In this document: piece after piece, positions 12,916 to 47,347 of the stretch | Layout: each line of letters starts with the position of its first letter | How positions within the stretch are numbered: the stretch's first letter is position 1 | NCBI GenBank assembly: GCA_040901705.1 | Contig: JBBDYI010000290.1 | Span: 18,686-82,685 of the forward strand | DNA length: 64,000 nt | From: Pirellulales bacterium | GTDB taxonomy: Bacteria; Planctomycetota; Planctomycetia; Pirellulales; PLA5 | Reading direction: 5' to 3' | Notes under the pieces: generated by a model | What the model was told of the DNA's origin: nothing | Seen by the model: the letters and a program-made list of their open reading frames with translations, nothing else | The model's database searches: none | Translations under genes and position numbers: made by a program

Positions 12916-15771
12916 TCATGAACGCGCCGGCGCGGCTTTTTCCGCCAGTTCGTCCTGCCAGGCCTTGAGCTTGGCCAACGCGGCCATCGGCGTCAGGTCG
13001 TCGATGTCCAGCTCGCGCAGCTCGTCGAGCAACGGGTGCTCGGCGGGGCCGAACAGCGTGAGTTGGATATCTCCGGCGCGGCGGCGGTCGGCCCGCGCCA
13101 GCTTCGAGCGGCCGTCGCGGTCGAGATGCTCGTCTTCGAGTTGGGCGAGGATTTGCTTGGCCCGTTCGTTCACTCTACGCGGCACGCCGGCCAGTCGCGC
13201 GACGTGGATGCCGTAGCTCTTGTCGGCCGCGCCGCCGATGATCTTATGCAGGAACACAACGTCGTCCTGCCATTCGCGGACCGCCACGTTCAAGTTTCGC
13301 ACGCCGGCGAGCGAATCGGCCAGTTCCGTCAGTTCGTGATAGTGCGTGGCGAACAGCGTCCGGCAGCCGACGGCGTCGTGCAGGTGCTCGACGATCGCCC
13401 AGGCCAGCGCCAAGCCGTCGTAAGTGCTTGTGCCGCGGCCGATTTCGTCGAGGATCACCAGACTACGCGGCGTGGCGTTGTGGAGAATCCGCGCCGTCTC
13501 GGTCATCTCGACCATGAACGTGCTCTGGCCGCGCGACAACTCATCGCTCGCGCCGACGCGGGCGAAAATTCGGTCGGCCACGCCGATCGTCGCACATTTC
13601 GCCGGCACGAAACTGCCGGCCTGGGCCATCAGCGTCAGCAGGGCGACCTGGCGGATGTAGGTGCTCTTGCCGGCCATGTTCGGACCGGTGATGAGCAGAA
13701 TCCTCGCCGACGCTTTTTCGTCCGCGCCATACGCCATCCCGTTACCGGCGCTACGGATACGGCGCGAATTCGTGCCGGAAAAATGCGGCGATGGCGGCGC
13801 GATGCCGGTGCCGTTTGGGTCGCCGTTGGAGTCGCTTGCCGCGTCGAGTCGGCGAAGAGATTCGCCTGCCACCGTTTCGGCTTCTTCGCCGGATTCGGCC
13901 GATTTCGCGCTGCCGGCTATCTCTTCGATCCCAGCCAGCGTATCGTTCGGTACGAACGTCCCCGCCGCCTCGGTGACGTCGAGCACCGGATGCCGGCCGT
14001 CGATGATGTTGAGCATCGGCTCCTCAACGACGACCGGCCGGCAGTACCCTCGCTCGCGGGCCAGCGAAGCCAGCGCCGAAAGCACGTCGATCTCCGCCAG
14101 AGCGGCCGCGGTCGATTGCAGCGATCTGCCCGTCGCCTGCACGGCGTCGCGCAATTGCACGAACAGCTCGTATTCCAGTTCCTTGGCGTTCTCGTCCGCC
14201 GACAGCACTTTCTCCTCATACTCCTTCAACTCCGGCGTGATGTACCGTTCGGAGTTCTTGATCGTCTGTTTGCGGATGTAGTGCTGCGGCACTTTGTCGC
14301 GATGCGTGTTCGTCACCTCCAGGTAATAGCCGAACACCTTGTTGAAGCCGACCTTCAGGCTCGTGATGCCGCTCGTGGCGATCTGTTCGGCCTGATACGC
14401 GGCGATCCATTTCTTGCCGCCGACGGTCAAGTCGCGCAATTCGTCGAGTCGCTCGTTGAAGCCGCCGCGAATGAAGCCGCCGTCGCGCGGCGAAAGCGGG
14501 CAGTCGTCCGCCAGCGCCGCGTCGAGCTTTGCGCGGAGGTCCGGACAGAGGTCGAGCTGCGCTTCGAGCCGCGCGAGCAGCACGCTCTTGCGTCCGGCGA
14601 GTTTCGCTTTCAAGCTCGGCAGCCCGCGCAGCGTCCGGCCGATGAAGCTCAAGTCGCGCGGACTTGCCCGGCCGGTCGTGACGCGGGCCAGCAGCCGCTG
14701 GAGGTCGTATACCTTTTTTAGCTGCTCGGCCAGCGCCGTGGTCAGCGCCGCATCGGCGACCAGTTCCGCCACGGCGTCGAGCCGTTCGTCGATCGACTTG
14801 ACGTCGGTGAGCGGCGCCGCGAGCCACTCGGCCAACCGCCGCGAACCCATCGGCGTCGCCGTGCGATCCATCACGGCGAGCAGCGACCCGTCGCGGCGGC
14901 CATCGCGCATCGTGCGCGTGATTTCCAGGCTCCGCCACGTGGCCTCGTCGATTTCCAGCGAATTGCCCGGCCGATACGGCGCGAGGTGGTCGATATGCGC
15001 GAGCGAGGCCTTCTGCGTTTCGGCCAGGTAATCGAGCACCGCGCCGGCCGCGCGAATTGCCGGTCCGTCGGCCTCGCCGAATCCAAACCCGTCGAGCGAC
15101 TTGGTGGCGAAGTGTTTGGTGAGCGTATCCGTAGCCGAGGCGAGTGCAAACGCCCAGGCCGGTCGCCGCGTGACGGTCAGTTCTTCCGCCACGTGTCGCG
15201 GCAACGGCTCGGCCTCTTCGGCGAGCAAACATTCCGCCGCGCCGATGCGGGCCAGTTCGTCGGCCAATCGCCGCGGTTCGATCACGGCCGCCTGAAACCG
15301 CCCGGTCGACAATTCGACCCACGCCAGCCCCATCGCGGCCGGCCCGGCAGTTGGCGTCGCTTTCTTTGCCGTCACCGAATCGACCACAACCGCGGCCAGG
15401 AAGTTGCTTTCGCGCGGATCGAGCAACGCATCGTCGGTCAGCGTGCCCGGCGTGACGATCCGCGTCACCTCGCGGCGGACCAGACCCTTGGCCTTCTTCG
15501 GGTCTTCGACTTGATCGCAAATGCCGACGCGATAGCCGCACTTGATCAGCTTGCCGAGGTAGTTTTCGAGCTGATGATAGGGAAAGCCGGCCATCGCCGT
15601 GGCGCCTTCGCCTTTTTCGCGGCTGGTGAGCGTCAGTCCCAGCACGCGGGCGGCCGTCTTAGCGTCGTCGTGAAACAGTTCGTAGAAATCGCCCATGCGA
15701 AACAGCAGAATCGCCTCGGGACACGCCCGTTTGGCGTCCTCATACTGTTGCATCATCGGCGTAGCAGCCAT
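12916..15771 (-). CDS. mutS: DNA mismatch repair protein MutS
   Basis: Track ORF 12916..15798; start chosen at 15771 (MAATPMMQQYEDAKR, the canonical MutS N-terminus). Walker A ITGPNMAGKSTYIRQ, LVILDEIGRGTSTYDG, FATHYHEL. Confidence 0.95.
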   Translation of the reverse strand: MAATPMMQQYEDAKRACPEAILLFRMGDFYELFHDDAKTAARVLGLTLTSREKGEGATAMAGFPYHQLENYLGKLIKCGYRVGICDQVEDPKKAKGLVRREVTRIVTPGTLTDDALLDPRESNFLAAVVVDSVTAKKATPTAGPAAMGLAWVELSTGRFQAAVIEPRRLADELARIGAAECLLAEEAEPLPRHVAEELTVTRRPAWAFALASATDTLTKHFATKSLDGFGFGEADGPAIRAAGAVLDYLAETQKASLAHIDHLAPYRPGNSLEIDEATWRSLEITRTMRDGRRDGSLLAVMDRTATPMGSRRLAEWLAAPLTDVKSIDERLDAVAELVADAALTTALAEQLKKVYDLQRLLARVTTGRASPRDLSFIGRTLRGLPSLKAKLAGRKSVLLARLEAQLDLCPDLRAKLDAALADDCPLSPRDGGFIRGGFNERLDELRDLTVGGKKWIAAYQAEQIATSGITSLKVGFNKVFGYYLEVTNTHRDKVPQHYIRKQTIKNSERYITPELKEYEEKVLSADENAKELEYELFVQLRDAVQATGRSLQSTAAALAEIDVLSALASLARERGYCRPVVVEEPMLNIIDGRHPVLDVTEAAGTFVPNDTLAGIEEIAGSAKSAESGEEAETVAGESLRRLDAASDSNGDPNGTGIAPPSPHFSGTNSRRIRSAGNGMAYGADEKASARILLITGPNMAGKSTYIRQVALLTLMAQAGSFVPAKCATIGVADRIFARVGASDELSRGQSTFMVEMTETARILHNATPRSLVILDEIGRGTSTYDGLALAWAIVEHLHDAVGCRTLFATHYHELTELADSLAGVRNLNVAVREWQDDVVFLHKIIGGAADKSYGIHVARLAGVPRRVNERAKQILAQLEDEHLDRDGRSKLARADRRRAGDIQLTLFGPAEHPLLDELRELDIDDLTPMAALAKLKAWQDELAEKAAPARS

Positions 15772-15827
15772 GCCCTTCTCCCGCGATCCCGCCTGCATTC
15801 CTCCGGCCTGTGCAGCCTACGGGCTAC

Positions 15828-31686: not shown

Positions 31687-34600
31687 TTACTCCAATTCGA
31701 TCAACAAATCGCCCGACTCGACCTGGCTGCCGGGCTTGACCAGCACGCTGCCGACTTTGCCTTGGCGCTCAGCGTAGATCGTCGACTCCATCTTCATCGC
31801 TTCGAGCGTGAGCAGCTTTTGCCCCTTCGCGACGTTGTCGCCGGCTTGCACGGCGACCGCGACCACCATGCCGGGCATCGCCGCGCCGATATGGTTCGCA
31901 TTCGCTGCGTCGGCTTGCGCCCGCTTGGGCACGTCGGCTTCTAGCGAATGGTCGACGACGCTCAGGTCGCGCGGCTGGCCATTGAGTTCAAAAAACACGT
32001 TGCGACGACCATCGGGATGCGGATCGCCGATGGTGAGGAACTTGATCATCAGCGTCTTGCCCGGTTCGATGTCGACGGCGACCTCCTCGCCGGTTTCGAT
32101 GCCGTGGAAGAAGACGGGCGTGGGCAGATCGCTGGTGTCGGAATAAGCCTGCCGATGCTGCACGAACTCGCGGAACACTTTCGGATACAGCAGGTACGTC
32201 ACCACGTCGCGGTCGGTCGGCTTGCGGTGCATGAAGCCTTCGACCGTGACGGCGGCTTCCTGGAAATCGGCCGGCGGCATGCTCGCGCCGGGCCGGCCGC
32301 GGACCGGTTTGCGGTCGCGGAGAATGCGGTCGCGAACCTTCTTGGGAAATCCGCCGTAGGGCTGGCCCATGTTGCCGATCAACAGATCGATCACCGAGGC
32401 GGGAAAGGCCAGGTCGCGGTTTTCGTCGAGCACGTCAGTGGTTTGAAAATTGTTGGCGACGAGAAACAGCGCCATGTCGCCGACGGCTTTCGACGTCGGC
32501 GTCACCTTGACGATGTCGCCGAGCAGTTGATTCACCTCGGCGTAGCGATGGCAAACCTCGGGCCAGCGGTCGGCCAAACCCAAAGCGCGGGCCTGCTCGA
32601 ATAGGTTCGTGTACTGCCCGCCGGGCATTTCGTGGCTGTACAGTTCGGCCGTCGCCGCCAGCGAAGCGCTCTCGAACGGAGTGTAGAACTCGCGGGCTTC
32701 GCGCCAGTATTCGGCGATCTCGTCGAGACCTTGTGCGGCGAGGCCCGTGTCGCGGGGCGTGAAGCGAAGCGCCTCGACAAGCGTATTGAGATTCACCTGC
32801 GACGTGCCGCCGGCCAGCGGAGCGAATGCCGTGTCGGCAATGTCGAGCTTGACCTCTGAGGCTTTGACGATCGATCCGGCCTGAATGCCCGCGGTGTCGT
32901 GTGTGTGAAAGTGGATCGGAATGCCGATCTCCTGCTTGAGCGTTTTGACGAGCAGCTCGGCGGCGTAGGGCTTGCATAGGCCGGCCATGTCCTTGATGGC
33001 CAGGATGTGCGCGCCCATCTTTTCGAGTTCCTTGGCCATCGCGACGTAGTAGGCCAGGTCGTACTTCGTGCGATTGGGGTCGAGGATGTCGCCGGTGTAG
33101 CAGATGGCCGCTTCGCAAAGTCCGCCGTGCTTGTGAACGGCGTCCATGGCGACTTTCATATTCGATGTGCTGTTGAGCGCGTCGAAGATGCGAAACACGT
33201 CGATGCCGGCGCCGGCCGCTTCCTTGACGAACGCTTTGACGATGTTGTCGGGATAGTTGGTGTAGCCGACGGCGTTCGACGCCCGCAGCAGCATTTGGAA
33301 CAGGATGTTGGGAATCCGCTCGCGAAGATCGGCGAGCCGTTGCCAGGGACATTCCTTCAAAAACCGCATCGCCGTGTCGAACGTCGCCCCGCCCCACATT
33401 TCCAGCGAGAACAGATCGGGGCATCGGTGCGCGTATGCGTCCGCGATGTTGAGCAGTTCCTTCGTCCGCAGCCGCGTGGCCAACAGCGACTGATGGGCGT
33501 CGCGCATCGTCGTGTCGGTCAACAACAGCGGCTTGTGCTTGAGAATCCACTGACAAAACTTTTCCGCGCCCAGTTTCTGGTAACGCTGCCGCATGCCGTC
33601 GGGAATCGGCTCGCTCGGATCGATGTCGGGCGTCTGAGCGGGCAAGCGTCGCGTCGACTTCGGCCGATCCTTCACTAGCGGGTTGCCGTTCACCGCATTT
33701 TCGGCCAGAAACGTCAACAACCGCGTGGCCCGGTCGCGGCGCTTGGGAAGGATGAACAGATCCGGCGTCTCGTCGATGAACCGCGTCGTGCATCGGCCTT
33801 CGAGAAACGACGTATTGGTGATCAGCTTGATGAGGAATTGCAGGTTCGTCTTTACGCCGCGGACGCGAAACTCCTGCAAGCAGCGCTCCATCCGCGCCGC
33901 CGCATCGACGAACCGCCGCCCGCGCGCCGTCACCTTCACCAGCAAAGAATCGTAAAACGGATTCACCACCGCGCCCGAAAACGCGCTGCCCGCATCGAGA
34001 CGAATGCCCATGCCGCTGGCCGAACGGTAATGCGTCATGCGGCCATAGTCGGGCATGAAATTGTTCGTCGGGTCTTCGGTCGTCACGCGGCACTGGATCG
34101 CAAAACCGGTCGTCGCCACGTCCTTCTGCGAAGCGATGCCGATCTCCGGATCGGCCAACGGCACGCCCTGAGCGACAAGAATCTGCGACTTGATCAAATC
34201 GACGCCGGTGACTTCCTCAGTGACCGTGTGTTCCACCTGAATCCGCGGATTGACCTCGATGAAGTAAAACTCGCCGCTGTCGCGATCGACGAGAAACTCC
34301 ACCGTGCCGGCGCACTCGTACTTTACCGCCCGGCCGATCGCCAGCGCCGATTCGCACAGGCTGTCGCGAAGTTCTTTGGCCAGATACGGCGCAGGCGCAA
34401 TCTCGACGACCTTTTGATGCCGCCGCTGGACCGTGCAATCCCGCTCGAGCAGATGCACGAGATTCCCGTGCTTGTCGCCGAGAAGTTGCACTTCGATATG
34501 CCGGGCGTTGGCCACCAGCTTTTCGATGAACACGTCCGGGCTGCCAAAAGCGGTCTGCGATTCGCGCTGGGCCTGCTCGAATGCGTTCACAAACTCGTCT

Positions 34601-35136
34601 GCCGTCTTGACGATCCGCATCCCGCGACCGCCGCCCCCCTTGGCCGCTTTGAGTATCACCGGGTAGCCGATCTTTTCGGCCTGCTTTTTGCCTTCGGTCG
34701 TCGAGCGAACCGCTTCCTTCGTGCCGCCAAGCACGGGCACGCCGATCTTCTCGGCCGTGTTGCGGGCGAACGTCTTGTCGCCAAGGTTTTCCAGAGCGTC
34801 GACCGTCGGCCCGACATACGTGATGCCGCTGTCCGCACACGCACGGGCAAAGTCCGGGTTCTCGGACAGGAATCCATAGCCGGGATGAATCCCATCGATG
34901 CCGTGCCGCCGGGCGACGTCGATGATCCCTTCGATGTCGAGGTACGCCCGGATTGGCTCGCCCTTGCGGCCAACCTGGTAAGACTCGTCGGCCTTGAACC
35001 GATGCAGCGCGAAGCGGTCCTCGTGAGAATAGATCGCCACGGTGCGGATGCCCATCTCATGGGCGGACCGAAAAACGCGAGTCGCGATCTCGCTACGATT
35101 GGCGACGAGGAGTTTGGTTATATTCTTGATTGACAT
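31687..35136 (-). CDS. pyc: Pyruvate carboxylase
   Basis: 1149 aa. N-terminal biotin carboxylase (KLLVANRSEIATRVFRSAHEMGI), central carboxyltransferase (LTDTTMRDAHQSLLATR) and C-terminal biotinyl site LEAMKME. Confidence 0.96.
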   Translation of the reverse strand: MSIKNITKLLVANRSEIATRVFRSAHEMGIRTVAIYSHEDRFALHRFKADESYQVGRKGEPIRAYLDIEGIIDVARRHGIDGIHPGYGFLSENPDFARACADSGITYVGPTVDALENLGDKTFARNTAEKIGVPVLGGTKEAVRSTTEGKKQAEKIGYPVILKAAKGGGGRGMRIVKTADEFVNAFEQAQRESQTAFGSPDVFIEKLVANARHIEVQLLGDKHGNLVHLLERDCTVQRRHQKVVEIAPAPYLAKELRDSLCESALAIGRAVKYECAGTVEFLVDRDSGEFYFIEVNPRIQVEHTVTEEVTGVDLIKSQILVAQGVPLADPEIGIASQKDVATTGFAIQCRVTTEDPTNNFMPDYGRMTHYRSASGMGIRLDAGSAFSGAVVNPFYDSLLVKVTARGRRFVDAAARMERCLQEFRVRGVKTNLQFLIKLITNTSFLEGRCTTRFIDETPDLFILPKRRDRATRLLTFLAENAVNGNPLVKDRPKSTRRLPAQTPDIDPSEPIPDGMRQRYQKLGAEKFCQWILKHKPLLLTDTTMRDAHQSLLATRLRTKELLNIADAYAHRCPDLFSLEMWGGATFDTAMRFLKECPWQRLADLRERIPNILFQMLLRASNAVGYTNYPDNIVKAFVKEAAGAGIDVFRIFDALNSTSNMKVAMDAVHKHGGLCEAAICYTGDILDPNRTKYDLAYYVAMAKELEKMGAHILAIKDMAGLCKPYAAELLVKTLKQEIGIPIHFHTHDTAGIQAGSIVKASEVKLDIADTAFAPLAGGTSQVNLNTLVEALRFTPRDTGLAAQGLDEIAEYWREAREFYTPFESASLAATAELYSHEMPGGQYTNLFEQARALGLADRWPEVCHRYAEVNQLLGDIVKVTPTSKAVGDMALFLVANNFQTTDVLDENRDLAFPASVIDLLIGNMGQPYGGFPKKVRDRILRDRKPVRGRPGASMPPADFQEAAVTVEGFMHRKPTDRDVVTYLLYPKVFREFVQHRQAYSDTSDLPTPVFFHGIETGEEVAVDIEPGKTLMIKFLTIGDPHPDGRRNVFFELNGQPRDLSVVDHSLEADVPKRAQADAANANHIGAAMPGMVVAVAVQAGDNVAKGQKLLTLEAMKMESTIYAERQGKVGSVLVKPGSQVESGDLLIELE

Positions 35137-35463: not shown

Positions 35464-36654
35464 TCAGGAGTGCTTCCCGACGGTCGTTGCGCGGCGATAT
35501 TCGCCCGGAGTGACTTTCATGCACCGGCGGAAGAAGGCGATCATGTACTCCGAATACGCAAAGCCGGATAGGTTCGCGATTACCGACAAGGTGTACTCCG
35601 TTTCGGTCAGCAATTGCTTGACCCGCTCCAATCGTACTCGATTGATCTCGGCCAACGGCGAACGGCCGAGCCGGCGTTGCATCCGCCGTTCCAGCGTCGT
35701 GCGCGAAACTCCGACGTGCCGCACCACGTCGGCGACGTCGATGCCATCGCTGGCGTGGCTGCGAATGAAACGCAGCGCCGTCGCTACGGCCCGGTCGTCG
35801 AGGGCATAGACGTCGGTCGACGCGCGAACGACCACTCGCAGCGGCGCAACCGGACGCGGCGGGACTGCGTTGCGCTCTCCTTTCATCATCCGCTGTAGAA
35901 GTTCGGCGGCTTGGTAGCCGATCCGTTCGGTGTCTTGTTCGACGCTGGTCAATCTTGGGCCGGCCAGTTCGCAAAGTACTTCGTCGTTGTCGACCCCGAT
36001 CACGGCGACGTCGTCGGGCACGGAGATTTGGTGTTCGCGACAGACGTTCAATACTTGCAGTCCACGAATGTCGTTGCATGCGATGACGCCGACCGGCTTT
36101 GGGAGTCCGCACAGCCACTTCGCCAATTGTTTCTCGTGCGTCAGTCCGGCCGCTTCGATGTCCATCGTCGTTATCGTTGCCACGCCGCGTTGCTGCGGTT
36201 CGTCGTAAACGCATATGGGCAATGCGGCCGCCATAAGCGACTCGGCGAAATATCGTTCGCGCCGTTCGGAATAAACGGCGCCGGCAAAGCCGCAGAACGC
36301 CAGATTGCGAAAGCCGCGCTCGCGCAAATGATCGATCGCCATTTGCGTCACCGCTCGGTCGTCGGTTTCAATGACCGGCGTTCGAGGCAGCGGATACGTC
36401 CCCGTCAAGTCGATTGCCGGCAGCTTCGAACGGGTCAACCGCCGAGCCAGCGCCGGCGTTTCCACACGGGCAATGATGCCATCGCCCGCCCAACGCCGCA
36501 GCCACAGTGGCGCGTTTGCCGAAAGCAGTTGTTCCTGGTGATAGATGGACCAGTTGCCGGCGGTGCGAGCGAAGGCGGCGATACCTCGGAGCACACCGCG
36601 TCCGTATTCACGCGACGACTCGACGAGCAATCCGACTTTGAACGTCTCGGCCAT
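35464..36654 (-). CDS. XylR-type regulator (periplasmic-binding-protein-like sugar domain + AraC HTH)
   Basis: 396 aa. N-terminus FKVGLLVESSREYGRGVLRGIAAF...WSIY, typical of XylR-like regulators. C-terminal AraC HTH ...RVRLERVKQLLTETEYTLSVIANLSGFAYSEYMIAFFRRCMKVTPGEYRR. Confidence 0.85.
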   Translation of the reverse strand: MAETFKVGLLVESSREYGRGVLRGIAAFARTAGNWSIYHQEQLLSANAPLWLRRWAGDGIIARVETPALARRLTRSKLPAIDLTGTYPLPRTPVIETDDRAVTQMAIDHLRERGFRNLAFCGFAGAVYSERRERYFAESLMAAALPICVYDEPQQRGVATITTMDIEAAGLTHEKQLAKWLCGLPKPVGVIACNDIRGLQVLNVCREHQISVPDDVAVIGVDNDEVLCELAGPRLTSVEQDTERIGYQAAELLQRMMKGERNAVPPRPVAPLRVVVRASTDVYALDDRAVATALRFIRSHASDGIDVADVVRHVGVSRTTLERRMQRRLGRSPLAEINRVRLERVKQLLTETEYTLSVIANLSGFAYSEYMIAFFRRCMKVTPGEYRRATTVGKHS

Positions 36655-36914: not shown

Positions 36915-38210
36915 ATGACTGTGAAAACCGCGTTTTTAGCGAGCATGTGTTGGCTCGCGCTAGCCGCGACGCGACCCGCCAGGGCCGTCGAATTTTGGAG
37001 CGTCGATCTCCAGGCGACCGGCAGCACGTTGTTTGGTCAATCGAATCCGCCGCTGACCGCGGCGGGCGCCGACCCGACGTTCAATCTCGGCAACGTCTGG
37101 AACGCCTATACGGTGCCGGCTCACGATTTACCCGCGGCGCTCGTGCCGGCAATCAATCTGGCCGACCGAGATGGTGCGGCGAGCAGCGTGACCTTTGGTA
37201 TTTCCGTTCCGATCGCCGGCTGGGGTGGTGCGGGCGCCGCGGGCGGAGCGAACGATCTGTTTCGCGACTATATCTTCGCGGCAGCAGGCAATTCGCCGGT
37301 CACGGCGGATTTCGTCATCGGCGGCCTGACGCCCGGCGCCAGTTACGACATGATCAACTTCGGTGGAATTGGCCGCGATAGCGCAGTCACCCTCGACTTC
37401 AACGGCAATGGCGACCTGGCCGACGAAACCGGCCGCATCGCTCCGGTCAACAACGGTGCCGCATTTCGCGGCATCATGGCCAGCGCTGCGGGCCAGATCG
37501 TCGGGCGTGTCGCCAACGGCACCGGCGATCCCGAAGGAAACTGGGCGGGATTCCATTTAATGAGCGCTGCGCCGCCTGGAGCGAAGCTGTGGAGCGTCGA
37601 TATCCACGGCGCGGGCAGCGACCTGTTCGGCCAGGACGTGGCCCCACAAAGCATGACCGGCCTCGAAACGCAATACGGCTTGGGCAACGTTTGGAATCAC
37701 GTCGCCGTGCCGGGCTACGACCTCGATCCGGCCGCCGTTTCGTCGCCGCTCGTCGATAGCGAAGGCAATCCGACGGGCGTCGAGTTCAACATTGTCGACG
37801 CGGTGCAAGGCTGGGGCGGAGATCCAGGCATGGGCACCGATCCGCTGCGCCGCGATTATTTGTTCGTGCAGGCCGGACGTTCGCCCGCCAGCGCGGAATG
37901 GACGATCACCGGCCTGACTCCCGGACACACGTATGAGTTGTTCGCGTATAGCGGCGCTGCCCGCGACGTCATGCTCGGCGTGGATCAAACGGGCGAGCAA
38001 TTCAACTTTCGCGGCGGCCACTTGTTCGGTAATGTCGCCGTCGACGGGAGCGGCATGATTTCGGGCCTCGTTTCCAGCGCTGCGGGCGAAGCGAATTGGT
38101 CCGGCTTTCAACTTCGCGATGTGACGCCGATTCCCGAGCCGAGCACGATGGCCCTCGTGCTCGTCGGCGCCGCGGCGACGGCCACGATTGCCCGACGACG
38201 GCGGGTATAA
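36915..38210 (+). CDS. PEP-CTERM-anchored secreted protein containing two copies of an uncharacterised module of about 180 aa
   Basis: Start chosen at 36915 (MTVKTAFLASMCWLALAATRPARA signal peptide). C-terminal sorting signal PIPEPSTMALVLVGAAATATIARRRRV. Two tandem modules; see the repeat features. Confidence 0.82.
   Translation: MTVKTAFLASMCWLALAATRPARAVEFWSVDLQATGSTLFGQSNPPLTAAGADPTFNLGNVWNAYTVPAHDLPAALVPAINLADRDGAASSVTFGISVPIAGWGGAGAAGGANDLFRDYIFAAAGNSPVTADFVIGGLTPGASYDMINFGGIGRDSAVTLDFNGNGDLADETGRIAPVNNGAAFRGIMASAAGQIVGRVANGTGDPEGNWAGFHLMSAAPPGAKLWSVDIHGAGSDLFGQDVAPQSMTGLETQYGLGNVWNHVAVPGYDLDPAAVSSPLVDSEGNPTGVEFNIVDAVQGWGGDPGMGTDPLRRDYLFVQAGRSPASAEWTITGLTPGHTYELFAYSGAARDVMLGVDQTGEQFNFRGGHLFGNVAVDGSGMISGLVSSAAGEANWSGFQLRDVTPIPEPSTMALVLVGAAATATIARRRRV
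36987..37559 (+). repeat. Protein-level repeat module, copy 1
   Basis: FWSVDLQATGSTLFGQ...LGNVWNAY...DLFRDYIFAAAGNSPVTADFVIGGLTPG...GTGDPEGNWAGFHL. Confidence 0.75.
37584..38114 (+). repeat. Protein-level repeat module, copy 2
   Basis: KLWSVDIHGAGSDLFGQ...LGNVWNHV...PLRRDYLFVQAGRSPASAEWTITGLTPG...GEANWSGFQL. Confidence 0.75.
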
Positions 38211-38317: not shown

Positions 38318-41300
38318 ATGCTTTGGCTTCAGACATGGAAGACTTTGACCGAGTCGAGAAGAAGTCGCGCGATTGCCGATCGTCGCCGCTCGCGCCGTTT
38401 GTCGCCGGCGACGGTGGAAGCGCTCGAGCCGCGCCTGGTGCTGGATAGCACCGTCGTATTCAACGAGATCATGTATAATCCGGCGGGGGACGATACGGGC
38501 CGGGAATGGATCGAACTGCACAACCAGATGGCCGTCGACATGGACGTCTCGTTGTGGCGCATCGACGGCGCGGTCGAGTACGATTTTCCCGAGGAGACGG
38601 TGATTCCCGGCCACGGCTATCTCGTCGTCGCCGCCGATCCCGATGCGTTCCAGACGGAATACGGCGTCGCTGGCGTGCTGGGGCCGTTTGCCGGTTCGCT
38701 CTCCAATGGCGGCGAAACGCTGGAGCTTTACAACAACTTCAATTCGGCCCGGACGCGGGCACTGCCGCCACCGCCTCCCGCGGCGGACAAGCTGTGGAGC
38801 GTCGATATTCAGGCCGTCGGCGGCGTGATCACGCAACCGAATCCACCGCTCAAGACCGGCGTCGAAGCCAGTTCCGGCTGGGGCGACGTGTGGAACGCCT
38901 TCAACATTGCCGGCCACACCGGAACCACGCTCAATCCGACGCTCGCGCTGGTTAACAGCGCCGGCACGCCCACGGGCGTCACGTTTTCCATTGCCGGCGC
39001 GATCTCCGGTTGGTCGGAAAACGGCGACGGGCTCACCAGCGACTATCTGTTCGTCGCGGCGGGCAACTCGCCGACCACGGCGAACTGGCAAATCACGGGC
39101 CTTGACCTGGCGAAGACGTACAGTTTTTTTCCCTATGGCAGTTCGCTACGCGACATGGGCTGGAACGTCGACCGCGGCGGCGACGGGTCGCTCGCCAACG
39201 ACGCGCCGCTTGTCGTTTCCGCCGCTGGCACATTGGTCGAGGGCGTCCACCCCGATGCGACTGGGAAGATCGTCGGCAGCGTCGCCAATGGCACGGGAGA
39301 CCCGGAGGGAAATTGGGCTGGATTCCAACTCCTGGAAGTCGATCCCACGCCCGGCGGCGCGCCGGACATTGCCCATTTGCCCGGTCCGGGTGGACTCGAC
39401 GGGCGGCGGTTGATGAATTCCGTCAACTACGACGACGGCGACGACTGGCCGATCGAGCCGGACGGCTCCGGCGCGTCGCTCGCGAAGATCGATCCGGACG
39501 CCGGCAGCGCGCAAGCCGAGAACTGGACATTCAGCAACACGGTCGGCGGCACGCCCGGGGTGCGGAACTTCTCCGATGGCCGTCCGCTGCAAGTTTCGCA
39601 GATTTCGGACGCCTCTGGCAACGGCCGCCACGGCGCGCCGTTCGCCCTGGGCACGGTGGCGGAGGGCTTCGAAGGCCGCGCCGGTTCGTTCGACGGGGCC
39701 ACGAGCTACGTCGAAGTGCCGATCGATCTCAATCCAACGGCCAATTCACAAATCACATTTGGCGCTTGGGTTCGTTCCGACACCACTTCGCCGACGCATG
39801 CGATCGTCTCGAACGACGATGGCGGTTGGGATCGTTCGATTGCTATCGGCAGCGGCGTCGCGCCGGTTTCGCCGGGCAACGAGAACGTGTGGAACGCCTT
39901 TAACGTACAAGGGCACAATCTCACTTCCACGAATCCTTCGATGAACCTCGTCGACCGCGACGGCGCGGCGACAAGCGTGAGTTTTTCGATTCTCGGCACG
40001 ATTTCCGGATTCAGCAACGCGCAGAATCCGGCCGCGCGGTTGACGAACGACTATATGTTCGTCAGCGCGGGAAATTCAGCCGCCAACGCCGATTGGACGA
40101 TCGCGGGCCTGGTGTCGCAACGGCAATACGACTTTTATGCCTACGGCGGCATCGCCCGCGACGCTTCGATGCGCGTCGACACGAATGGCGACGGTTCGCT
40201 CGCCGGCGAAACGACGCGGATGGCGCCGGTCAATGGCGGTATCCTGATCGGCGGCGTAACGGCGAGCAACTCGGGGCAGATTCTCGGCAATGTCGGACCC
40301 GGCAGCGGCGGCGAGGGAAACTGGAGTGGTTTTCAACTCGTCGATCGAGTGACCGGGCAGTTGTGGAGCGTCGACATTCAGGCGATCAATGGCCCGCTGT
40401 TCGGACAGCAACCGCCGTTGTTGCAGAGCGGCCCGTTGTCCACCGGCGCGGGCGTCGGGTACTCCGCTTTTGCCGGCGGGCACCAGTTCAACGGCAGTGG
40501 CATTACCGCCGATCCCGCAACGTGGGCGTTCGTCGCCGGAGCGTTCGATCAGACGACAAACAGCATGACGCTGTACGTCGACCGCGACGCATCGACGACG
40601 GCCGACGCCGTACAGGTCTTCACCGACGCGGCCACGGCGTTCGGCACGAGTCTGTTGCCGACGAATATCGGCCGATTGCCGTCGGGGGCGTGGTATTTCG
40701 ATGGTTTGATCGACAACGTGTTTTTCGCCGACGGCGCGCTCAGCGCGGGACAGATTACCGCATTGCGAGACGGCGGCGCGGCGGCCGTTTCGGCATTGGG
40801 CGGCGATCTGCTCGCGTTCTATCCGTTCGAGGACGTCGCGCCGGGCGACACGACGGTCGAATTGCCGGCGCTGGTGATTAACGAATTCGATTCGTCCGAG
40901 GCCGCGCTGTTTCGCGTGGAATTGGTCAACTCGGGCGATACGGCTGTAAATCTCGCCGGCATGGTGCTATCGACCAACGAGACCGGCGCGCCCGACTACT
41001 CGTTTCCCGCGCAAATGCTCGCCGCAGGCGGTCGGATCGTGGTCGACGAAGTGGCGCTTGGTTTCCGGCCGAACGATGGCGATGCGCTGTTCCTGTTCAC
41101 GGCCGGCAAGACGTCGGTCGTCGACGCCGGGCACGTCGACAATTCGCCGCGGGCACGCTATCCCGACGTTACGGGGCCTTGGCTCGAGCCGACGACGATG
41201 ACGCTGGGCGGCGCGAACGTCGTCGACCTCCGCGACGAGATCGCGATCAACGAGATCATGTACCACGGCTATCCGGACCGCGGTACACCGCCCACGCCGG

Positions 41301-44300
41301 CGGAATACGCGACGACGACGCTGCTCGATTGGAACGCGACGTGGCGCTACAACCAGGTTGGCCAATCGGTCGCCGGCGGCCAGCTTCCGACGAATTGGGC
41401 GGCGACTTCGCATCCAGTCGACGGATCGACGTGGCTTTCCGGCAACGGTCTTTTTGCGCTGGAACCCAACGGCACGATCGCAGACATTCGAACGCCGCTC
41501 ACCCTCGGCGGCGGCCGCACGACGTACTATTTCGAGACGGAGTTCACGGTCCCCACGGACGCTGCGGACGGGTTCGAACTGCAAATCGAACATTACATCG
41601 ACGACGGCGCACTTTTCTACCTCAACGGCGTCGAAATCGTCGACCGCGTCAACTTGCCGGCCGCCGGAGTGACGAATGCGACCTTCGCTTTGGCTCAGAT
41701 CGAGGCCGCTGTCGCGACCGTCGTCGTGTCGGCCGACCGCCTGGCCGTAGCGGGCTTTGCCAAGGGGGTGCCGCAGCGGCTGTCGGTCGAAGTGCATCAA
41801 GGTGCGGCGGCGAGCAGCGACGTCGTATTCGGCACGCGCGTTCATACGCGCGTACAATCCGCGCCCGGAACGCCCGGCACGCCGTATGCCGAGAGCAACG
41901 AGGAGTGGATCGAGCTTTACAACCGTTCGGCGACGACGGTCGATTTGACGGGCTGGTCGCTCCGCGGCGGCGTGGACTACGCATTCGTCGGCGGTACGAC
42001 GATCCCGGCCGGCGGCTATCTCGTGGTGTCGAACGACGCCGCGGCGCTGGCGGCCAAGTATCCGGCGATTGCGGGCGAGATCGTCGGGATTTTTTCCGGA
42101 ACGCTGTCGAATTCCGGCGAAACCGTGCGGCTCGAAGACCCGCTGGGCAATCCGGCCGACGAAGTGCGATACTACGATGGCGGGCGGTGGCCCGCCGCGG
42201 CCGATGGCGGCGGATCGTCGCTCGAATTGCGCGATCCCGGCGCGGACAACGCGCAACCGGCCGCGTGGGCGGCCAGCGACGAGTCGGCCGGTACGGCGTG
42301 GCGGACGTACACCTACCGCGGCATCGCCGTGAACGACGGCATCGGCAACGATGTGTTCCGAGAACTGGTGCTCGGCATGTTGGACGCCGGCGAGCTTTTG
42401 TTGGACGACATCAGCGTCGTCGAACGCCCCGGTACGCCGCAGGCGGTTGCCGTCATTCGAAACGGCTCGTTCGAGACGGACGCCCTGGGCAGCGCGGCCA
42501 GCAGTTGGCGGATCATCGGCAACCACTCAGGCACGGTCATCGCCGATCCCACCAACGCCGCGAACAAGGTGTTGCGGCTCGTCGCGACCGGGCCCACGGA
42601 AGACAAACACAATCACGCCGAAACGACGTTCGCGGCGAATCGGCCGATCGCCGTCGGCGCGGAATACGAGATTTCATTCCGCGCGAAATGGATATCGGGT
42701 TCGAACCAACTCAACTCGCGGCTGTATTTCAATTTCTTACAGCAAACGACACTGATCGACGTGTCGCACGATGGCGGCACGCCGGCGGCGCAAAACTCGC
42801 GGTTTGCGGCGAATGTCGGGCCGACATACACCGAGTTCTACCACGGTCCGGTCGTGCCCAAGGCGAACGAGGAGGTGACGGAGTCCGTGGCGGCCGCCGA
42901 CCCGGACGGCGTGGCGTCGATGGCGCTGTTCTACTCGGTCGGCGGCGGCGGGTTTTCGTCGATTGCCATGACGGACGCCGGCGGAGGTCGATATACCGGC
43001 AAGATTCCCGGTCAGGCGGCGGCGAGCGTGGTGCAGTTCTATGTGCAAGGCGCCGATGCGCTCGGCGCGGTCTCGACCTATCCGGCCGACGGGGCGAGTT
43101 CGCGGGCGCTGTACGTCGTCGAGGACGGTCAGGCCGCCGTCGGACAATTGCACAACCTACGCATCGTCATGACGCCGGCGGATCGCGATTTCCTATACCT
43201 GAACACCAACCGCATGAGTAACGCGCACCTCGGCGCGACCGTGATCTACGACGAGCGGGAGGTGTTCTACGACGTCGGCGCGCAGCTAAAAGGCAGCGCC
43301 TTTGGCCGCTTCGCCGGTACGGAAACCGGCTTCAGCGTTCGCTTCAACCCCGACGAATTGTTCCGCGGTGTTCACGAAACGATCAGCATCGAACGGGCCG
43401 GCAACAAGAAGGAATTGCTCGCCAAACACATGTACGGGCGCGCTGGCGGCGGGCTGGTGAGTTTCTACGACGACGTGATCCGCATCGTCGCGCCACGAGC
43501 GAACGAAACCGGCGTCACGCTGCTCTCGATGGCTCGATACAGCGACGTGTTTCTCGATGAGTCCTTCGACAACGGCGGCGAAGGCGCGCTCTACAACATG
43601 GAGTTGCTCTACAACCCCAACGGCACGGTCGACGGGAATCCCGAAAGCCTCAAGCTCAACAATCCATACAACCATACCAACGGTACGGTGGTCATTGCCG
43701 ATCGCGGCGACGACAAAGAGACGTACCGCTGGAACTACCAGATGCGCAACGCCCGCGGCCGCGACGACTATGCACCGCTCATCGAATTGATGCAGGCGTT
43801 CAGTCTTGCCGGCTCAGCGCTCGACGCGGCGACGCAACAGATCATGGACGTCGACCAATGGATGCGGACGTGGGCGATGTTCTCGCTCAACGGCAACGAC
43901 GATCTGTACACCCGCGTCTACGATCACAACTACCGGATGTACGTGCGGCCCGAGGACGGCAAGATCATCGGCATGCCCTGGGATTTGGACCGCGCATTTC
44001 AGATCGCGACCAACGCGCCGCTCTGGGGCGACGAAAACCTCCGCAACGTGATCGAGTTGCCAACGAACAAGCGGCTGTTCTACGGCCACTTGTTCGACAT
44101 TGCGAACACGACGGCGAACGCAGATTATATGACGACGTGGGCGACGCACTTCGCGGCGCTAACCGGCCAGAGCTTTTCTGGAGAATTGGGCTACATCGTC
44201 GCCCGCAGCAATTACGTCCTCGGCCAGCTTCCCGGTGAGTTTTCGTTCGACATCGCGACGGCCGATCCACTCGACGTCGGTGCGGCATCGACGGCCACGC

Positions 44301-45439
44301 TGACCGGACGGGCCTGGATCGACGTCCGCGAGATTCGCGTCGCCGGCAGCGTGTTGCCGCTCGACGTTGCCTGGACCGCCACGCCGCTGGGCACGTCGGC
44401 CGCCGGCCCTTGGTCCGACGGCTGGCAAATGACGATTCCCGTCGATTCGTCCACGGGACTTGTCACGCTCGAAGCCTACGACCACCAAGGCAACCTCGTC
44501 GGAACGGACACGATCACGGTCGCCAGCACCGCGCCGCGGCCGATCGTCGATCAGCTTCGTATCGTCGAACTGATGTATAACCCGCCGGGCAACGGCGATG
44601 GCGAAGAGTTCGTGGAAATCATGAACGTCAGCGCGATGCCGATCGCGAGCCTCGCTGGTGTCCACTTCACCAACGGCCTCGACTTTACGTTCGGCGACGT
44701 ACCGCTGGCGGCGGGTCAGCGGGCGGTGATCGTGCGCGATCTTTCGGCATTCGAAGCCAGGTATGGATCGGGCATCAACGTCGTCGGCGAGTACACCGGT
44801 TCGGCGCTCGACAATTCCGGCGAGCAACTTACGCTCGTCGACTCCGACGGCGCGCTCGTGCAGCAATTTACCTACGACGATACGGGCGAAGGCTGGCATC
44901 CGACGACCGACGGCGAAGGCTACTCGCTCGTCATCATCGATCCGACAGCCGCTACGGCCACTTGGGATCTCGGCGGTTCTTGGCAGCCGAGTTTCAACAT
45001 CGGGGGTTCGCCCGGCGCGGAAGACACGGCCTCGCTCGACGGCGACGTGAATGGGGATCTTCAAGTCGATCTCGTTGACCTGGCGATCGTACAGTCGCAC
45101 ATTGGAACGACGTCGGGCGCAACGCGAGAACTTGGCGATTTGAATGGCGACGGCGCCGTCAATCGCGCGGACGTCGCGATTCTCGCGGCAAATTTCGGAC
45201 GACATTTGGCCAACGCCGCGGCCCCGGCGGCCGTCGTCGCGCGAGCCGCCGACCTTACCCGCCAGCCGACGTCCGGCCAGCAGAACACACTCCGTGCCGA
45301 ACGCCGGGTGAGGCGGGCGAATACTACAACTGTTCCGCTCTCGTCTGCGGCGACCGACCAGGTGCTGGCGGAGTCGACCGACGACCTTCGCCTCGCGATC
45401 GCCCGGCGCACGCGCGTTGTGGGGCGGCTGCCAAGGTAA
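38318..45439 (+). CDS. Giant secreted multidomain protein (2373 aa): lamin-tail domains, repeat modules, LamG, CotH kinase-like domain, dockerin-type repeats
   Basis: N-terminus ...RRLSPATVEALEPRLVL. LTD blocks FNEIMYNPAGDDTGREWIELHN, EEWIELYNRSATTVDLTGWSL and VELMYNPPGNGDGEEFVEIMN. LamG-type blocks GRAGSFDGATSYVEV...FGAWVRSD and WAFVAGAFDQTTNSMTLYVD...WYFDGLIDNVFF. CotH-like region from about 43100 to 44250 (LHNLRIVMTPADRDFLYLN...YNMELLYNPNG). Dockerin-like DVNGDLQVDLVDLAIV...GDLNGDGAVNRADVAILAANFG. Confidence 0.88.
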   Translation: MLWLQTWKTLTESRRSRAIADRRRSRRLSPATVEALEPRLVLDSTVVFNEIMYNPAGDDTGREWIELHNQMAVDMDVSLWRIDGAVEYDFPEETVIPGHGYLVVAADPDAFQTEYGVAGVLGPFAGSLSNGGETLELYNNFNSARTRALPPPPPAADKLWSVDIQAVGGVITQPNPPLKTGVEASSGWGDVWNAFNIAGHTGTTLNPTLALVNSAGTPTGVTFSIAGAISGWSENGDGLTSDYLFVAAGNSPTTANWQITGLDLAKTYSFFPYGSSLRDMGWNVDRGGDGSLANDAPLVVSAAGTLVEGVHPDATGKIVGSVANGTGDPEGNWAGFQLLEVDPTPGGAPDIAHLPGPGGLDGRRLMNSVNYDDGDDWPIEPDGSGASLAKIDPDAGSAQAENWTFSNTVGGTPGVRNFSDGRPLQVSQISDASGNGRHGAPFALGTVAEGFEGRAGSFDGATSYVEVPIDLNPTANSQITFGAWVRSDTTSPTHAIVSNDDGGWDRSIAIGSGVAPVSPGNENVWNAFNVQGHNLTSTNPSMNLVDRDGAATSVSFSILGTISGFSNAQNPAARLTNDYMFVSAGNSAANADWTIAGLVSQRQYDFYAYGGIARDASMRVDTNGDGSLAGETTRMAPVNGGILIGGVTASNSGQILGNVGPGSGGEGNWSGFQLVDRVTGQLWSVDIQAINGPLFGQQPPLLQSGPLSTGAGVGYSAFAGGHQFNGSGITADPATWAFVAGAFDQTTNSMTLYVDRDASTTADAVQVFTDAATAFGTSLLPTNIGRLPSGAWYFDGLIDNVFFADGALSAGQITALRDGGAAAVSALGGDLLAFYPFEDVAPGDTTVELPALVINEFDSSEAALFRVELVNSGDTAVNLAGMVLSTNETGAPDYSFPAQMLAAGGRIVVDEVALGFRPNDGDALFLFTAGKTSVVDAGHVDNSPRARYPDVTGPWLEPTTMTLGGANVVDLRDEIAINEIMYHGYPDRGTPPTPAEYATTTLLDWNATWRYNQVGQSVAGGQLPTNWAATSHPVDGSTWLSGNGLFALEPNGTIADIRTPLTLGGGRTTYYFETEFTVPTDAADGFELQIEHYIDDGALFYLNGVEIVDRVNLPAAGVTNATFALAQIEAAVATVVVSADRLAVAGFAKGVPQRLSVEVHQGAAASSDVVFGTRVHTRVQSAPGTPGTPYAESNEEWIELYNRSATTVDLTGWSLRGGVDYAFVGGTTIPAGGYLVVSNDAAALAAKYPAIAGEIVGIFSGTLSNSGETVRLEDPLGNPADEVRYYDGGRWPAAADGGGSSLELRDPGADNAQPAAWAASDESAGTAWRTYTYRGIAVNDGIGNDVFRELVLGMLDAGELLLDDISVVERPGTPQAVAVIRNGSFETDALGSAASSWRIIGNHSGTVIADPTNAANKVLRLVATGPTEDKHNHAETTFAANRPIAVGAEYEISFRAKWISGSNQLNSRLYFNFLQQTTLIDVSHDGGTPAAQNSRFAANVGPTYTEFYHGPVVPKANEEVTESVAAADPDGVASMALFYSVGGGGFSSIAMTDAGGGRYTGKIPGQAAASVVQFYVQGADALGAVSTYPADGASSRALYVVEDGQAAVGQLHNLRIVMTPADRDFLYLNTNRMSNAHLGATVIYDEREVFYDVGAQLKGSAFGRFAGTETGFSVRFNPDELFRGVHETISIERAGNKKELLAKHMYGRAGGGLVSFYDDVIRIVAPRANETGVTLLSMARYSDVFLDESFDNGGEGALYNMELLYNPNGTVDGNPESLKLNNPYNHTNGTVVIADRGDDKETYRWNYQMRNARGRDDYAPLIELMQAFSLAGSALDAATQQIMDVDQWMRTWAMFSLNGNDDLYTRVYDHNYRMYVRPEDGKIIGMPWDLDRAFQIATNAPLWGDENLRNVIELPTNKRLFYGHLFDIANTTANADYMTTWATHFAALTGQSFSGELGYIVARSNYVLGQLPGEFSFDIATADPLDVGAASTATLTGRAWIDVREIRVAGSVLPLDVAWTATPLGTSAAGPWSDGWQMTIPVDSSTGLVTLEAYDHQGNLVGTDTITVASTAPRPIVDQLRIVELMYNPPGNGDGEEFVEIMNVSAMPIASLAGVHFTNGLDFTFGDVPLAAGQRAVIVRDLSAFEARYGSGINVVGEYTGSALDNSGEQLTLVDSDGALVQQFTYDDTGEGWHPTTDGEGYSLVIIDPTAATATWDLGGSWQPSFNIGGSPGAEDTASLDGDVNGDLQVDLVDLAIVQSHIGTTSGATRELGDLNGDGAVNRADVAILAANFGRHLANAAAPAAVVARAADLTRQPTSGQQNTLRAERRVRRANTTTVPLSSAATDQVLAESTDDLRLAIARRTRVVGRLPR
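38789..39331 (+). repeat. Protein-level repeat module, copy 3 (inside the giant gene)
   Basis: KLWSVDIQAVGGVITQ...WGDVWNAF...LTSDYLFVAAGNSPTTANWQITGL...GTGDPEGNWAGFQL. The DNA around GTGDPEGNWAGF is also similar to 37510-37556. Confidence 0.75.
39878..40453 (+). repeat. Protein-level repeat module, copy 4, register-shifted (starts at the GNVWN block, ends with the LWSVD block of a following unit)
   Basis: NENVWNAF...LTNDYMFVSAGNSAANADWTIAGL...GSGGEGNWSGFQLVD, then RVTGQLWSVDIQAINGPLFGQQPPLLQSG. Embedded between the two halves of a LamG domain. Confidence 0.7.
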
Positions 45440-46129: not shown

Positions 46130-47347
46130 TCATTCGTCGCTGACGCCAAGCTCGACGCGAATCTTCGCCGGGCGATTGTCTCGTTGCACGGTGACTTCGA
46201 CGGGGTCGCCCGGCTTGTGGCTTTCGATGAGCGACATGAACTGCGACGCCGACTGGACCGGCTTACCGTCGACGGCCACGATCGTGTCGGCTTGCGAACG
46301 GTCGAGGCGTTGCCATTCTTCGATGAACGCGCCGCGCTGGCGGCGCTCGCGGACGATGCGATAGCCGCGGAGGCCCGCCGATGCCGCGGGGCCGTTGGGC
46401 GTGACGGCTACGACGACCAGTCCTTGATCGGATTCGAGCACACGGGCGATGCCGACGTCGGGACGAATGACGCGGCCATGTTCGATCAGTTGCGGCAGGA
46501 TCGTGGCGATCGTGCTGGAACCGATGGCGAATCCGACGCCGGAGCTTTGGCCGGTCTTGCTGGCGATGGCGGTGTTCATACCGATCACGCGGCCGCGGGT
46601 GTCGAGCAGCGGTCCGCCGGAATTGCCGGGATTGATCGAGGCGTCGATCTGGATGATCGACTTGATGGTGCGGCGGTTGCGCGAGGGCAGGGAGCGGTTG
46701 AGACTGGCGATGATGCCGGCGGTGAGCGTGCGCTCGAGGCCGAACGGGTTGCCGATGGCGAACACGCGCTGGCCGACGCGAAGCTGCGACGAGTCGCCAA
46801 ACGTGACGGGGAACAAGACGTCCTCAGGCGCGTCGATGCGGATCAGGGCCATGTCGGTCGAAGCGTCGCGGCCGACGACTTCGGCGGTGTAGGCCTTGCC
46901 GTCGAACAGCGTGACGCGGATTTCGTCGGCCCCTTCGACGACGTGGTAGTTGGTCAGGACGTGGCCCTGGCGGTCGATGACGAATCCGGAACCAGCGCCT
47001 TCGGTCGGCGGGACTTCCAGTAGGAAGAACGGATCGTCATGCTGGGCACGGGTGGTGATGTTCGCCACGCTGTGGTTGGTCCGCTCGTAGACGTCGATGT
47101 TGACGCGCTCGTCGGGCATGAGCTCGTCGAGTCGGTTGCCGGGAACGAAGCCAGGGACCGTCGCCGCAGCGCCCGGAGACGCAGCGGGATCGTCCGCACG
47201 GTCCGCGGGACGGCGAACGTCGAACTTCGCGGCGGGCGGTGGCTGTTGGGCGAGGGATTGCCTTTCGCCAGGACCATTTTCGATCAACACGGCGGCGGCC
47301 GCGCCGACCGCCAGGCACGTTGCACAAAGAATGAGGTTTCGCAGCAT
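46130..47347 (-). CDS. HtrA/DegP-type periplasmic serine protease with PDZ domain
   Basis: 405 aa, with a signal/anchor segment. Catalytic blocks TNYHVV, DMALIRI and NPGNSGGPLLD. C-terminal PDZ-like region. Confidence 0.9.
   Translation of the reverse strand: MLRNLILCATCLAVGAAAAVLIENGPGERQSLAQQPPPAAKFDVRRPADRADDPAASPGAAATVPGFVPGNRLDELMPDERVNIDVYERTNHSVANITTRAQHDDPFFLLEVPPTEGAGSGFVIDRQGHVLTNYHVVEGADEIRVTLFDGKAYTAEVVGRDASTDMALIRIDAPEDVLFPVTFGDSSQLRVGQRVFAIGNPFGLERTLTAGIIASLNRSLPSRNRRTIKSIIQIDASINPGNSGGPLLDTRGRVIGMNTAIASKTGQSSGVGFAIGSSTIATILPQLIEHGRVIRPDVGIARVLESDQGLVVVAVTPNGPAASAGLRGYRIVRERRQRGAFIEEWQRLDRSQADTIVAVDGKPVQSASQFMSLIESHKPGDPVEVTVQRDNRPAKIRVELGVSDE

Follow-up and report, generated by a model that had tools for sequence, protein, structure and literature searches.

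A giant secreted protein of a Pirellulales bacterium contains a LamG domain that, by sequence comparison, is divided into two halves by a complete copy of a second domain, and this second domain, a module of ~185 residues, is itself circularly permuted. The gene lies in the 64,000-nucleotide stretch of DNA analysed here (assembly GCA_040901705.1, contig JBBDYI010000290.1, positions 18,686 to 82,685 of the forward strand; referred to as the window and numbered from its first nucleotide). We consider it very probable that this domain-in-domain arrangement, with the permuted module in a loop of LamG, originated from a tandem gene by permutation by duplication. A preliminary description of the window, made from the DNA letters, had proposed a LamG domain split by a register-shifted copy of a repeat module, and all of the sequence strings that it quoted are found at the positions it gave, within a single, intact open reading frame (ORF) of 2373 amino acids (7.1 kb) that holds the whole split-domain arrangement (Table 1).

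The insert is a complete, circularly permuted module

The module was described with a profile hidden Markov model (HMM) of 187 positions built from ten canonical copies (alignment A1). Its native order is evident in about 180 representatives of the family: a signal peptide or preceding domain, then the SVD strand, the WN block and GFQL, and finally a PEP-CTERM anchor or a following domain. The copy inside LamG departs from this canonical order (SVD in strand 1, WN, and GFQL at the end), its own order being circularly permuted. As the preliminary description had read it, the insert begins in mid-module at the NVWN block, runs past GNWSGFQL and continues into the block that normally opens a module; in terms of the profile, positions 31-187 are followed by positions 1-25. 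NVWNAFNV starts at 39884, GNWSGFQL ends at 40339 and LWSVDIQAINGPLFGQ lies at 40361-40408. The second part of the insert, in which HMM positions 1-25 span residues 682-705, consists of the relocated first strand together with half of the long loop of the module.

The same exchange is visible in the DNA. Repeats within the region, whose self-comparison had been suggested as a check, show the order of the WSVD and NVWN blocks reversed in the insert: in the three canonical copies, the NVWN block is preceded by the WSVD block at ~97-99 nt, whereas in the insert the WSVD block comes second, at a distance of 477 nt. Since the module copies resemble each other at the DNA level in motif patches alone (64-84%), the duplications are old.

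If the insert is un-permuted by moving its LWSVDIQ piece to the front, it aligns from end to end with the three other copies in the window at 41-47% identity, and the loop that had been cut is restored from its two halves with the correct length. The residues that are invariant or nearly invariant in the family are kept in 35 of 36 cases, and the single change (G31 to E) falls at the cut site. The insert is thus a complete module, circularly permuted and nested in a hairpin loop of LamG.

The flanking segments are halves of one LamG domain

Residues 453-519 and 713-815 of the protein are, as judged from profile and pairwise alignments, complementary halves of one Laminin_G_3 domain. The first half starts with GRAGSFDG at 39674, while the second starts with VGYSAFAGG at 40454 and its SAGQI motif ends at 40756; the boundaries of both halves were also aligned to the uninterrupted LamG domains of the relatives P0053, P0063 and P0046. 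Upon removal of the ~190 residues between the flanks, the spliced sequence matches Laminin_G_3 (PF13385) continuously from position 1 to 150/151 (E 4e-15, 56.7 bits; gathering score 27.6 bits), which bears out the earlier proposal that the flanks belong to a single LamG. A profile built from the spliced domain together with its relatives gives a collinear match to 4qvs_A, a solved structure of the LamG type (E 1.6e-9), and P0046 can be aligned straight across the junction with 32% identity over 97% of the spliced sequence. By profile, therefore, the flanks make up a full-length member of the family; unlike its relatives in P0046, P0053, P0063 and P0004, which are uninterrupted, the LamG of the window is broken by ~190 residues in a hairpin loop. 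On this sequence evidence, LamG would be expected to re-form around the insert.

In the unspliced protein, Pfam detects Laminin_G_3 in two stretches that together reach 35 bits. This could favour an alternative in which nothing is split or permuted, either because the flanks are not parts of one LamG or because the module natively extends from NVWN to LFGQ. The first form of this alternative is contradicted by the spliced match, by the intact-LamG orthologues that span the junction and by the homologue of solved structure. As for the second, which the preliminary description had itself named as grounds for abandoning its proposal, the native boundaries found in the ~180 representatives are WSVD...GFQL: free-standing members begin with SVD after the signal peptide and finish with GFQL before PEP-CTERM. 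We regard this alternative as exceedingly improbable.

The module often accompanies LamG in other proteins, and LamG precedes the module in P0004, P0058, P0097 and P0105. Given that the two are such frequent neighbours, one may ask whether it was LamG that entered a module. However, this would require the order module-front, LamG, module-back, whereas the order seen is LamG-N, module-back, module-front, LamG-C; furthermore, orthologues have LamG alone at the same position. We attach next to no probability to this reverse nesting.

Orthologues retain different architectural states

The host protein belongs to the giant LTD-CotH-dockerin proteins found in Planctomycetota, Verrucomicrobiota and Kiritimatiellia, with which it is orthologous (47-64% identity over ~2000 residues) and with which it shares a canonical module nested in its first lamin tail domain (LTD1). 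LamG with the permuted insert is confined to a Pirellulales-type lineage. The complete architecture of the window, i.e. the module in LTD1 as well as the LamG split by the permuted module, is present in L004, a Planctomycetota metagenome-assembled genome (MAG) with 86% identity, and in P0049, which is 64% identical over 2273 residues. P0075 (47-63% identity) has a LamG with the permuted module, while its LTD1 is continuous and lacks any module. In addition, a Logan contig of 1917 bp (L001, from SRR25822716) encodes an orthologous fragment, ~75% identical, with the permuted nest and with three frameshifts in 1.9 kb, which more likely reflect errors in the reads or the assembly than a pseudogene.

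In two full-length orthologues with ~47% identity, P0053 (MEZ5300825.1, from a Verrucomicrobiales MAG) and P0063, LamG is uninterrupted. Comparison with such orthologues had been proposed as a check on the split, and both align on either side of the insert and skip the insert alone; in the case of P0053, residues 40-512 of the window protein correspond to 7-477, and residues 715-2241 to 489-1991. Residues 513-714 correspond to an 11-residue stretch of P0053, and the net insert relative to the intact-LamG orthologues is ~190 residues. The insert is replaced in these orthologues by a 10-residue loop, TGGTEANNPR, with the flanking strands DR.I.I.S and Y.AF.G conserved. Two Verrucomicrobia loci (L005 and L006) and one from Kiritimatiellia (L008) have the LTD1-nested module and no LamG block. 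The LTD1 nest is thus kept in Verrucomicrobia and Kiritimatiellia orthologues, and it is also present in at least 7 large representatives.

Relatives of the module were collected with a word-indexed search, which gave 45, and an exhaustive HMMER scan, after which 183 representatives had been fetched in all. Among these 183, the signature of HMM positions 31-187 followed by 1-26 occurs in P0049 and P0075 only, and a metagenome scan returned two canonical-module loci and no further permuted case. In a neighbour-joining (NJ) tree of the module cores, calculated with no bootstrap and read for coarse grouping only, the four permuted copies fall into a single clade, which is apart from the LTD1-nested copies and closer to the first modules found in free tandem proteins.

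The permuted module is under selection and is predicted to fold

The preliminary description held that the insertion had preserved the reading frame, and this agrees with the single ORF and the 35 invariant residues kept, as well as with the pattern of substitutions. Between the window and L004, the ratio of nonsynonymous to synonymous substitution rates (dN/dS) is 0.13 for the long part of the insert and 0.17 for the linker and relocated strand; the values are 0.09-0.11 for the LamG halves and 0.08-0.14 for the rest of the protein. The insert is under purifying selection.

An AlphaFold2 (AF2) model of residues 440-820 was calculated from an alignment (A4) assembled from real sequence fragments. 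The permuted module is modelled with a predicted local distance difference test (pLDDT) score of 90-99, and the relocated strand with ~94-97. In this model, the last strand of the module, NWSGFQLVD, leads through a five-residue turn into the relocated first strand, LWSVDIQAI (model strands 228-237 and 243-251). The prediction supports the view that the permuted module folds as a module.

It could be argued that the arrangement is an artefact or a product of decay, i.e. an assembly chimera or a pseudogenised, scrambled stretch devoid of function, and the three frameshifts of L001 would fit such a view. However, four assemblies that are independent of one another and differ in source (the window, L004, P0049 and P0075) show the same uninterrupted arrangement, and the intact 7.1-kb ORF, the low dN/dS of the insert, the near-complete set of invariant residues and the confident AF2 fold of the module all point the other way. 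There is scarcely any chance, in our judgement, that this explanation is correct.

These features suggest how the nest could work. LamG would offer two adjacent antiparallel strands as a hairpin for insertion, and the longest and least ordered loop of the module, cut in two, would provide both connectors to these strands; since both connectors come from one cut loop, the new termini necessarily lie side by side. The original termini would be closed by a short turn, as in a hairpin, and they must already be close to each other because a canonical copy sits in the LTD1 hairpin. LamG and the module may then fold independently, so that LamG would display an extra binding module.

The insert probably derives from a tandem two-module gene

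In BLAST, the insert gives a single, unbroken alignment through the junction between modules A and B of tandem two-module PEP-CTERM proteins: residues 65-250 of P0001 (51% over 187 residues), residues 69-250 of the ORF directly upstream in the window (47% over 182 residues) and residues 64-247 of P0002 (45% over 186 residues). In each case, the long part of the insert agrees better with the first module of the tandem protein than with the second. The linker comprises 7 residues in the insert, compared to 9-14 between tandem modules. Collinearity through the tandem junction is expected under the permutation-by-duplication model and substantiates the earlier suggestion that the insert is an out-of-register cut of a tandem array like that of the upstream gene.

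In the model that we propose, the source was a tandem PEP-CTERM gene with two modules, of the type found directly upstream of the giant gene. The segment taken from it would have been out of register with the modules, so that it held the rear part of the first, the linker and the beginning of the second. It would then have entered, in frame, the LamG loop of an ancestral protein with an intact LamG, such as is still present in the Verrucomicrobiales orthologues. This would have been a single event in the planctomycete lineage, after which the insert was kept under purifying selection. The exact recombination route is one that we infer from these comparisons.

Several observations weigh against this reading. 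In the NJ tree, the insert of the window is placed nearer the first modules of P0001, P0048 and P0002 than the modules of its own upstream gene, which are not its sister group. No intermediate, i.e. a LamG with a whole or a double module, came to light among the 183 fetched representatives or at the 10 genome and 2 metagenome loci, an absence that falls short of proof, and a word-indexed search with the spliced LamG gave 2 matches and no intermediates. Finally, the LamG flanks have pLDDT values of only 31-63 in the AF2 model of residues 440-820, with 0-2 homologous alignment rows in these segments. The low values arise because almost no homologous rows covered the flank columns; P0046, P0004 and P0008 were left out of the alignment, since MAFFT placed them, whole or halved, on the module columns.

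A different history would have the permutation take place within LamG itself: a whole canonical module enters the loop and is duplicated there in tandem, and the outer, redundant parts are then deleted. The canonical module in the LTD1 hairpin of the same protein shows that whole-module insertion occurs, and the classical permutation-by-duplication model passes through such intermediates (PMC3320104). However, the fetched representatives and the genome and metagenome scans contained no LamG in which the module is canonical or doubled, and this counts against the in-place route as well; the route needs three events instead of one, and the linker length and collinearity already fit existing free tandem proteins. 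We consider the in-place route unlikely, and the transfer of an out-of-register segment from a tandem gene remains the explanation that we favour.

The module defines a family of predicted beta jelly rolls

A HMMER scan of a sequence library clustered at 50% identity detected 943 representatives of the module at E<=1e-3, of which 309 reach E<=1e-10 and 61 reach E<=1e-30. The majority are single-module PEP-CTERM proteins of 250-290 residues from bacteria of the Planctomycetota-Verrucomicrobiota-Chlamydiota (PVC) group, and one has an IPTL-CTERM-type tail. Neither Pfam nor NCBIfam contains a model that covers the ~185-residue module, and a sequence search of the PDB with the module profile gave insignificant matches alone, to immunoglobulin (Ig) and Fn3 domains of fibronectin and titin.

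The AF2 model of a canonical module, calculated from a 10-sequence alignment, is all-beta, with a pLDDT of 83 and a predicted template modelling score (pTM) of 0.84; confidence is lowest in the long loop between strands 1 and 2. Structural neighbours found for the module by Foldseek in the PDB are consistently jelly rolls, namely: the carbohydrate-binding modules (CBMs) CBM61, CBM35/36, CBM32, CBM6 and CBM4/16, the C-domain of DipZ, APC10/BIRC6 and PA14. As predicted, the fold resembles a CBM-like, galactose-binding-domain-like beta jelly roll. The closest structural neighbours of this predicted jelly roll are CBM6/35/36/61/32, APC10/DOC and PA14; the module differs from them in having no membership in their sequence families, and the structural matches are weak.

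The module may bind glycans or other surface polymers. This putative role is suggested by the likeness to CBM jelly rolls, weak as the Foldseek matches are (best E ~1e-3, template modelling scores of 0.3-0.5), and by the fact that the family is secreted or anchored by PEP-CTERM and often associated with LamG, and that XylR-type regulators are found beside two of its loci. A loop of the form D-x-[ND]-G-D-G-x-L is conserved in nearly all family members and reads VDTNGDGSL in the window, at ~40190-40215. We take this loop to resemble calcium-binding loops and, presumably, to mark a putative site of this kind.

Considered as a whole, the ~940 representatives at 50% clustering might constitute a new CBM-like family of binding domains in PVC-group bacteria, one that is unusually prone to nesting. 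We advance this tentatively, as a real possibility rather than as the expected outcome.

The host protein and its gene neighbourhood

The giant protein is identical to MEX2188122.1, a protein of a Pirellulales MAG that is publicly labelled as a lamin tail domain-containing protein. Its features and those of the adjacent genes are listed in Table 1.

Table 1. Positions of the features in the window and the matches that support them.
Feature	Position	Strand	Description and evidence
XylR-type AraC-family regulator, divergent	35464..36654	-	Pfam PBP1_XylR, Peripla_BP_3, HTH_18
Upstream gene, 440 aa	36888..38210	+	Signal peptide, tandem canonical modules A and B, PEP-CTERM anchor (Pfam, NCBIfam)
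Module A of upstream gene	36993-37559	+	Module HMM 1-187
Module B of upstream gene	37587-38114	+	Module HMM 1-187
Giant secreted protein	38318..45439	+	Four LTDs, LamG, weak CBM_4_9, CotH, C-terminal dockerin (Pfam)
LTD1, N-terminal part, up to ...LSNGGETLELYNN	38453..38740	+	Pfam LTD (PF00932), E 7.5e-14; aligns with LTD3 and LTD4
Canonical module in LTD1 hairpin, aa 159-338	38792..39331	+	Module HMM 1-187; Pro-rich linkers on both sides
LTD1, C-terminal part, LMNSVNYDDGDDWP...ENW	39395..39535	+	46% identity to last strands of LTD3, pairwise E 2.6e-7
LamG, N-terminal half, aa 453-519	39674..39874	+	Laminin_G_3 profile 1-46; ends with strand DRSIAIGSG and connector VAPVSP
Insert part 1, NVWN...GNWSGFQL, aa 520-674	39875..40339	+	Module HMM 31-187, E 3e-57
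Linker VDRVTGQ, 7 aa, joining the original C- and N-termini of the module	40340..40360	+	Matches inter-module linker of tandem proteins
Insert part 2, LWSVDIQAINGPLFGQQPPLLQSGPLSTGAG, aa 682-712	40361..40453	+	Module HMM 1-25 and beyond; DNA repeat families D1, D2
LamG, C-terminal half, aa 713-815, VGYSAF...WYFDGLIDNVFF...SAGQITA	40454..40762	+	Laminin_G_3 69-150, E 8.5e-10

The N-terminus of the giant protein (38318-38450, RRRSRRLSPATVEALEPRLVLDS) resembles a leader of the LEPR-xLL type, as in large secreted proteins of planctomycetes; a comparison of this leader with NCBIfam gave no match at E<=0.1. The end of the upstream gene, which is on the same strand, is separated from the giant ORF by 108 bp. 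A regulator with the same domains as the divergent XylR-type regulator of the window adjoins the gene for P0004, a LamG and module protein, in an unrelated locus of the Phycisphaeraceae (L002, 9541-10716). The occurrence of XylR-type regulators beside two independent module loci hints at sugar-responsive control. In this setting, the nested module would probably act as an extra unit for binding glycans or surface polymers, held out by the LamG of a protein at the cell surface and controlled by a XylR-type sugar regulator.

No signs of mobile elements were seen among the genes neighbouring the locus in the window. Housekeeping genes nearby encode a pyruvate carboxylase-like protein, MutS and an HtrA-type protease (31687-35136, 12916-15798 and 46130-47347, respectively, all on the reverse strand). 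In the Verrucomicrobia loci L005 (8576-10699) and L006 (8540-10699), the gene that directly precedes the giant gene likewise has a single copy of the module at its end, following Asp-rich repeats of the thrombospondin type 3-like kind. Module proteins and giant LTD/CotH proteins are thus paired syntenically across phyla.

Comparison with known systems

Circular permutation by duplication and the insertion of domains into other domains are both known phenomena, and their combination has a direct precedent in swaposin, a permuted saposin that derives from a tandem array and resides inside plant aspartic proteinases, and for which permutation by duplication has been given as the explanation (PMC3320104). 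The likeness is close: in both systems, a permuted copy of a tandem-array domain, corresponding to an out-of-register segment, is nested in a host domain. Three properties of such a nested permutant are found here, namely: exchanged parts, tandem relatives that are collinear with the insert inclusive of the linker, and a host domain that is intact in relatives. Partly trimmed duplicates, which would represent evolutionary intermediates, were not found in the representatives and loci covered. Swaposin, however, is small, all-helical, eukaryotic and located in the lobe of an enzyme, whereas here a beta-sandwich of ~185 residues lies inside the beta-sandwich of LamG in a giant surface protein of bacteria. 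In the present system, moreover, one can still find orthologues with the intact host as well as the tandem type of donor, which is represented by the neighbouring gene.

What is new is therefore this bacterial instance of a beta-sandwich within a beta-sandwich, for which the donor type, the intact host and the derived states can all be observed, together with the module family itself, which has not been described previously. The finding reveals no new biological mechanism; it is a clean, textbook-style case of one that is already known.

Significance

It is rare for a natural domain to be both permuted and nested while its relatives retain the tandem type of donor and an uninterrupted host; swaposin is the classic example. 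The present locus provides a bacterial, all-beta example with a full comparative series, in which orthologues have kept the stages without LamG, with an intact LamG, with a LamG that carries the insert, and with an LTD that lacks one. Such a series is useful for the study of protein evolution and for the engineering of domain insertions and permutations. At a practical level, since profile tools split or miss the LamG domain and the module lacks an entry as a family, a definition of the module would improve the annotation of several hundred surface proteins of PVC bacteria. If the family is indeed prone to nesting, it would offer a natural model for the tolerance of beta-sandwiches to insertion and permutation, and the joining of LamG with a CBM-like module might possibly create a composite binding site of new specificity.

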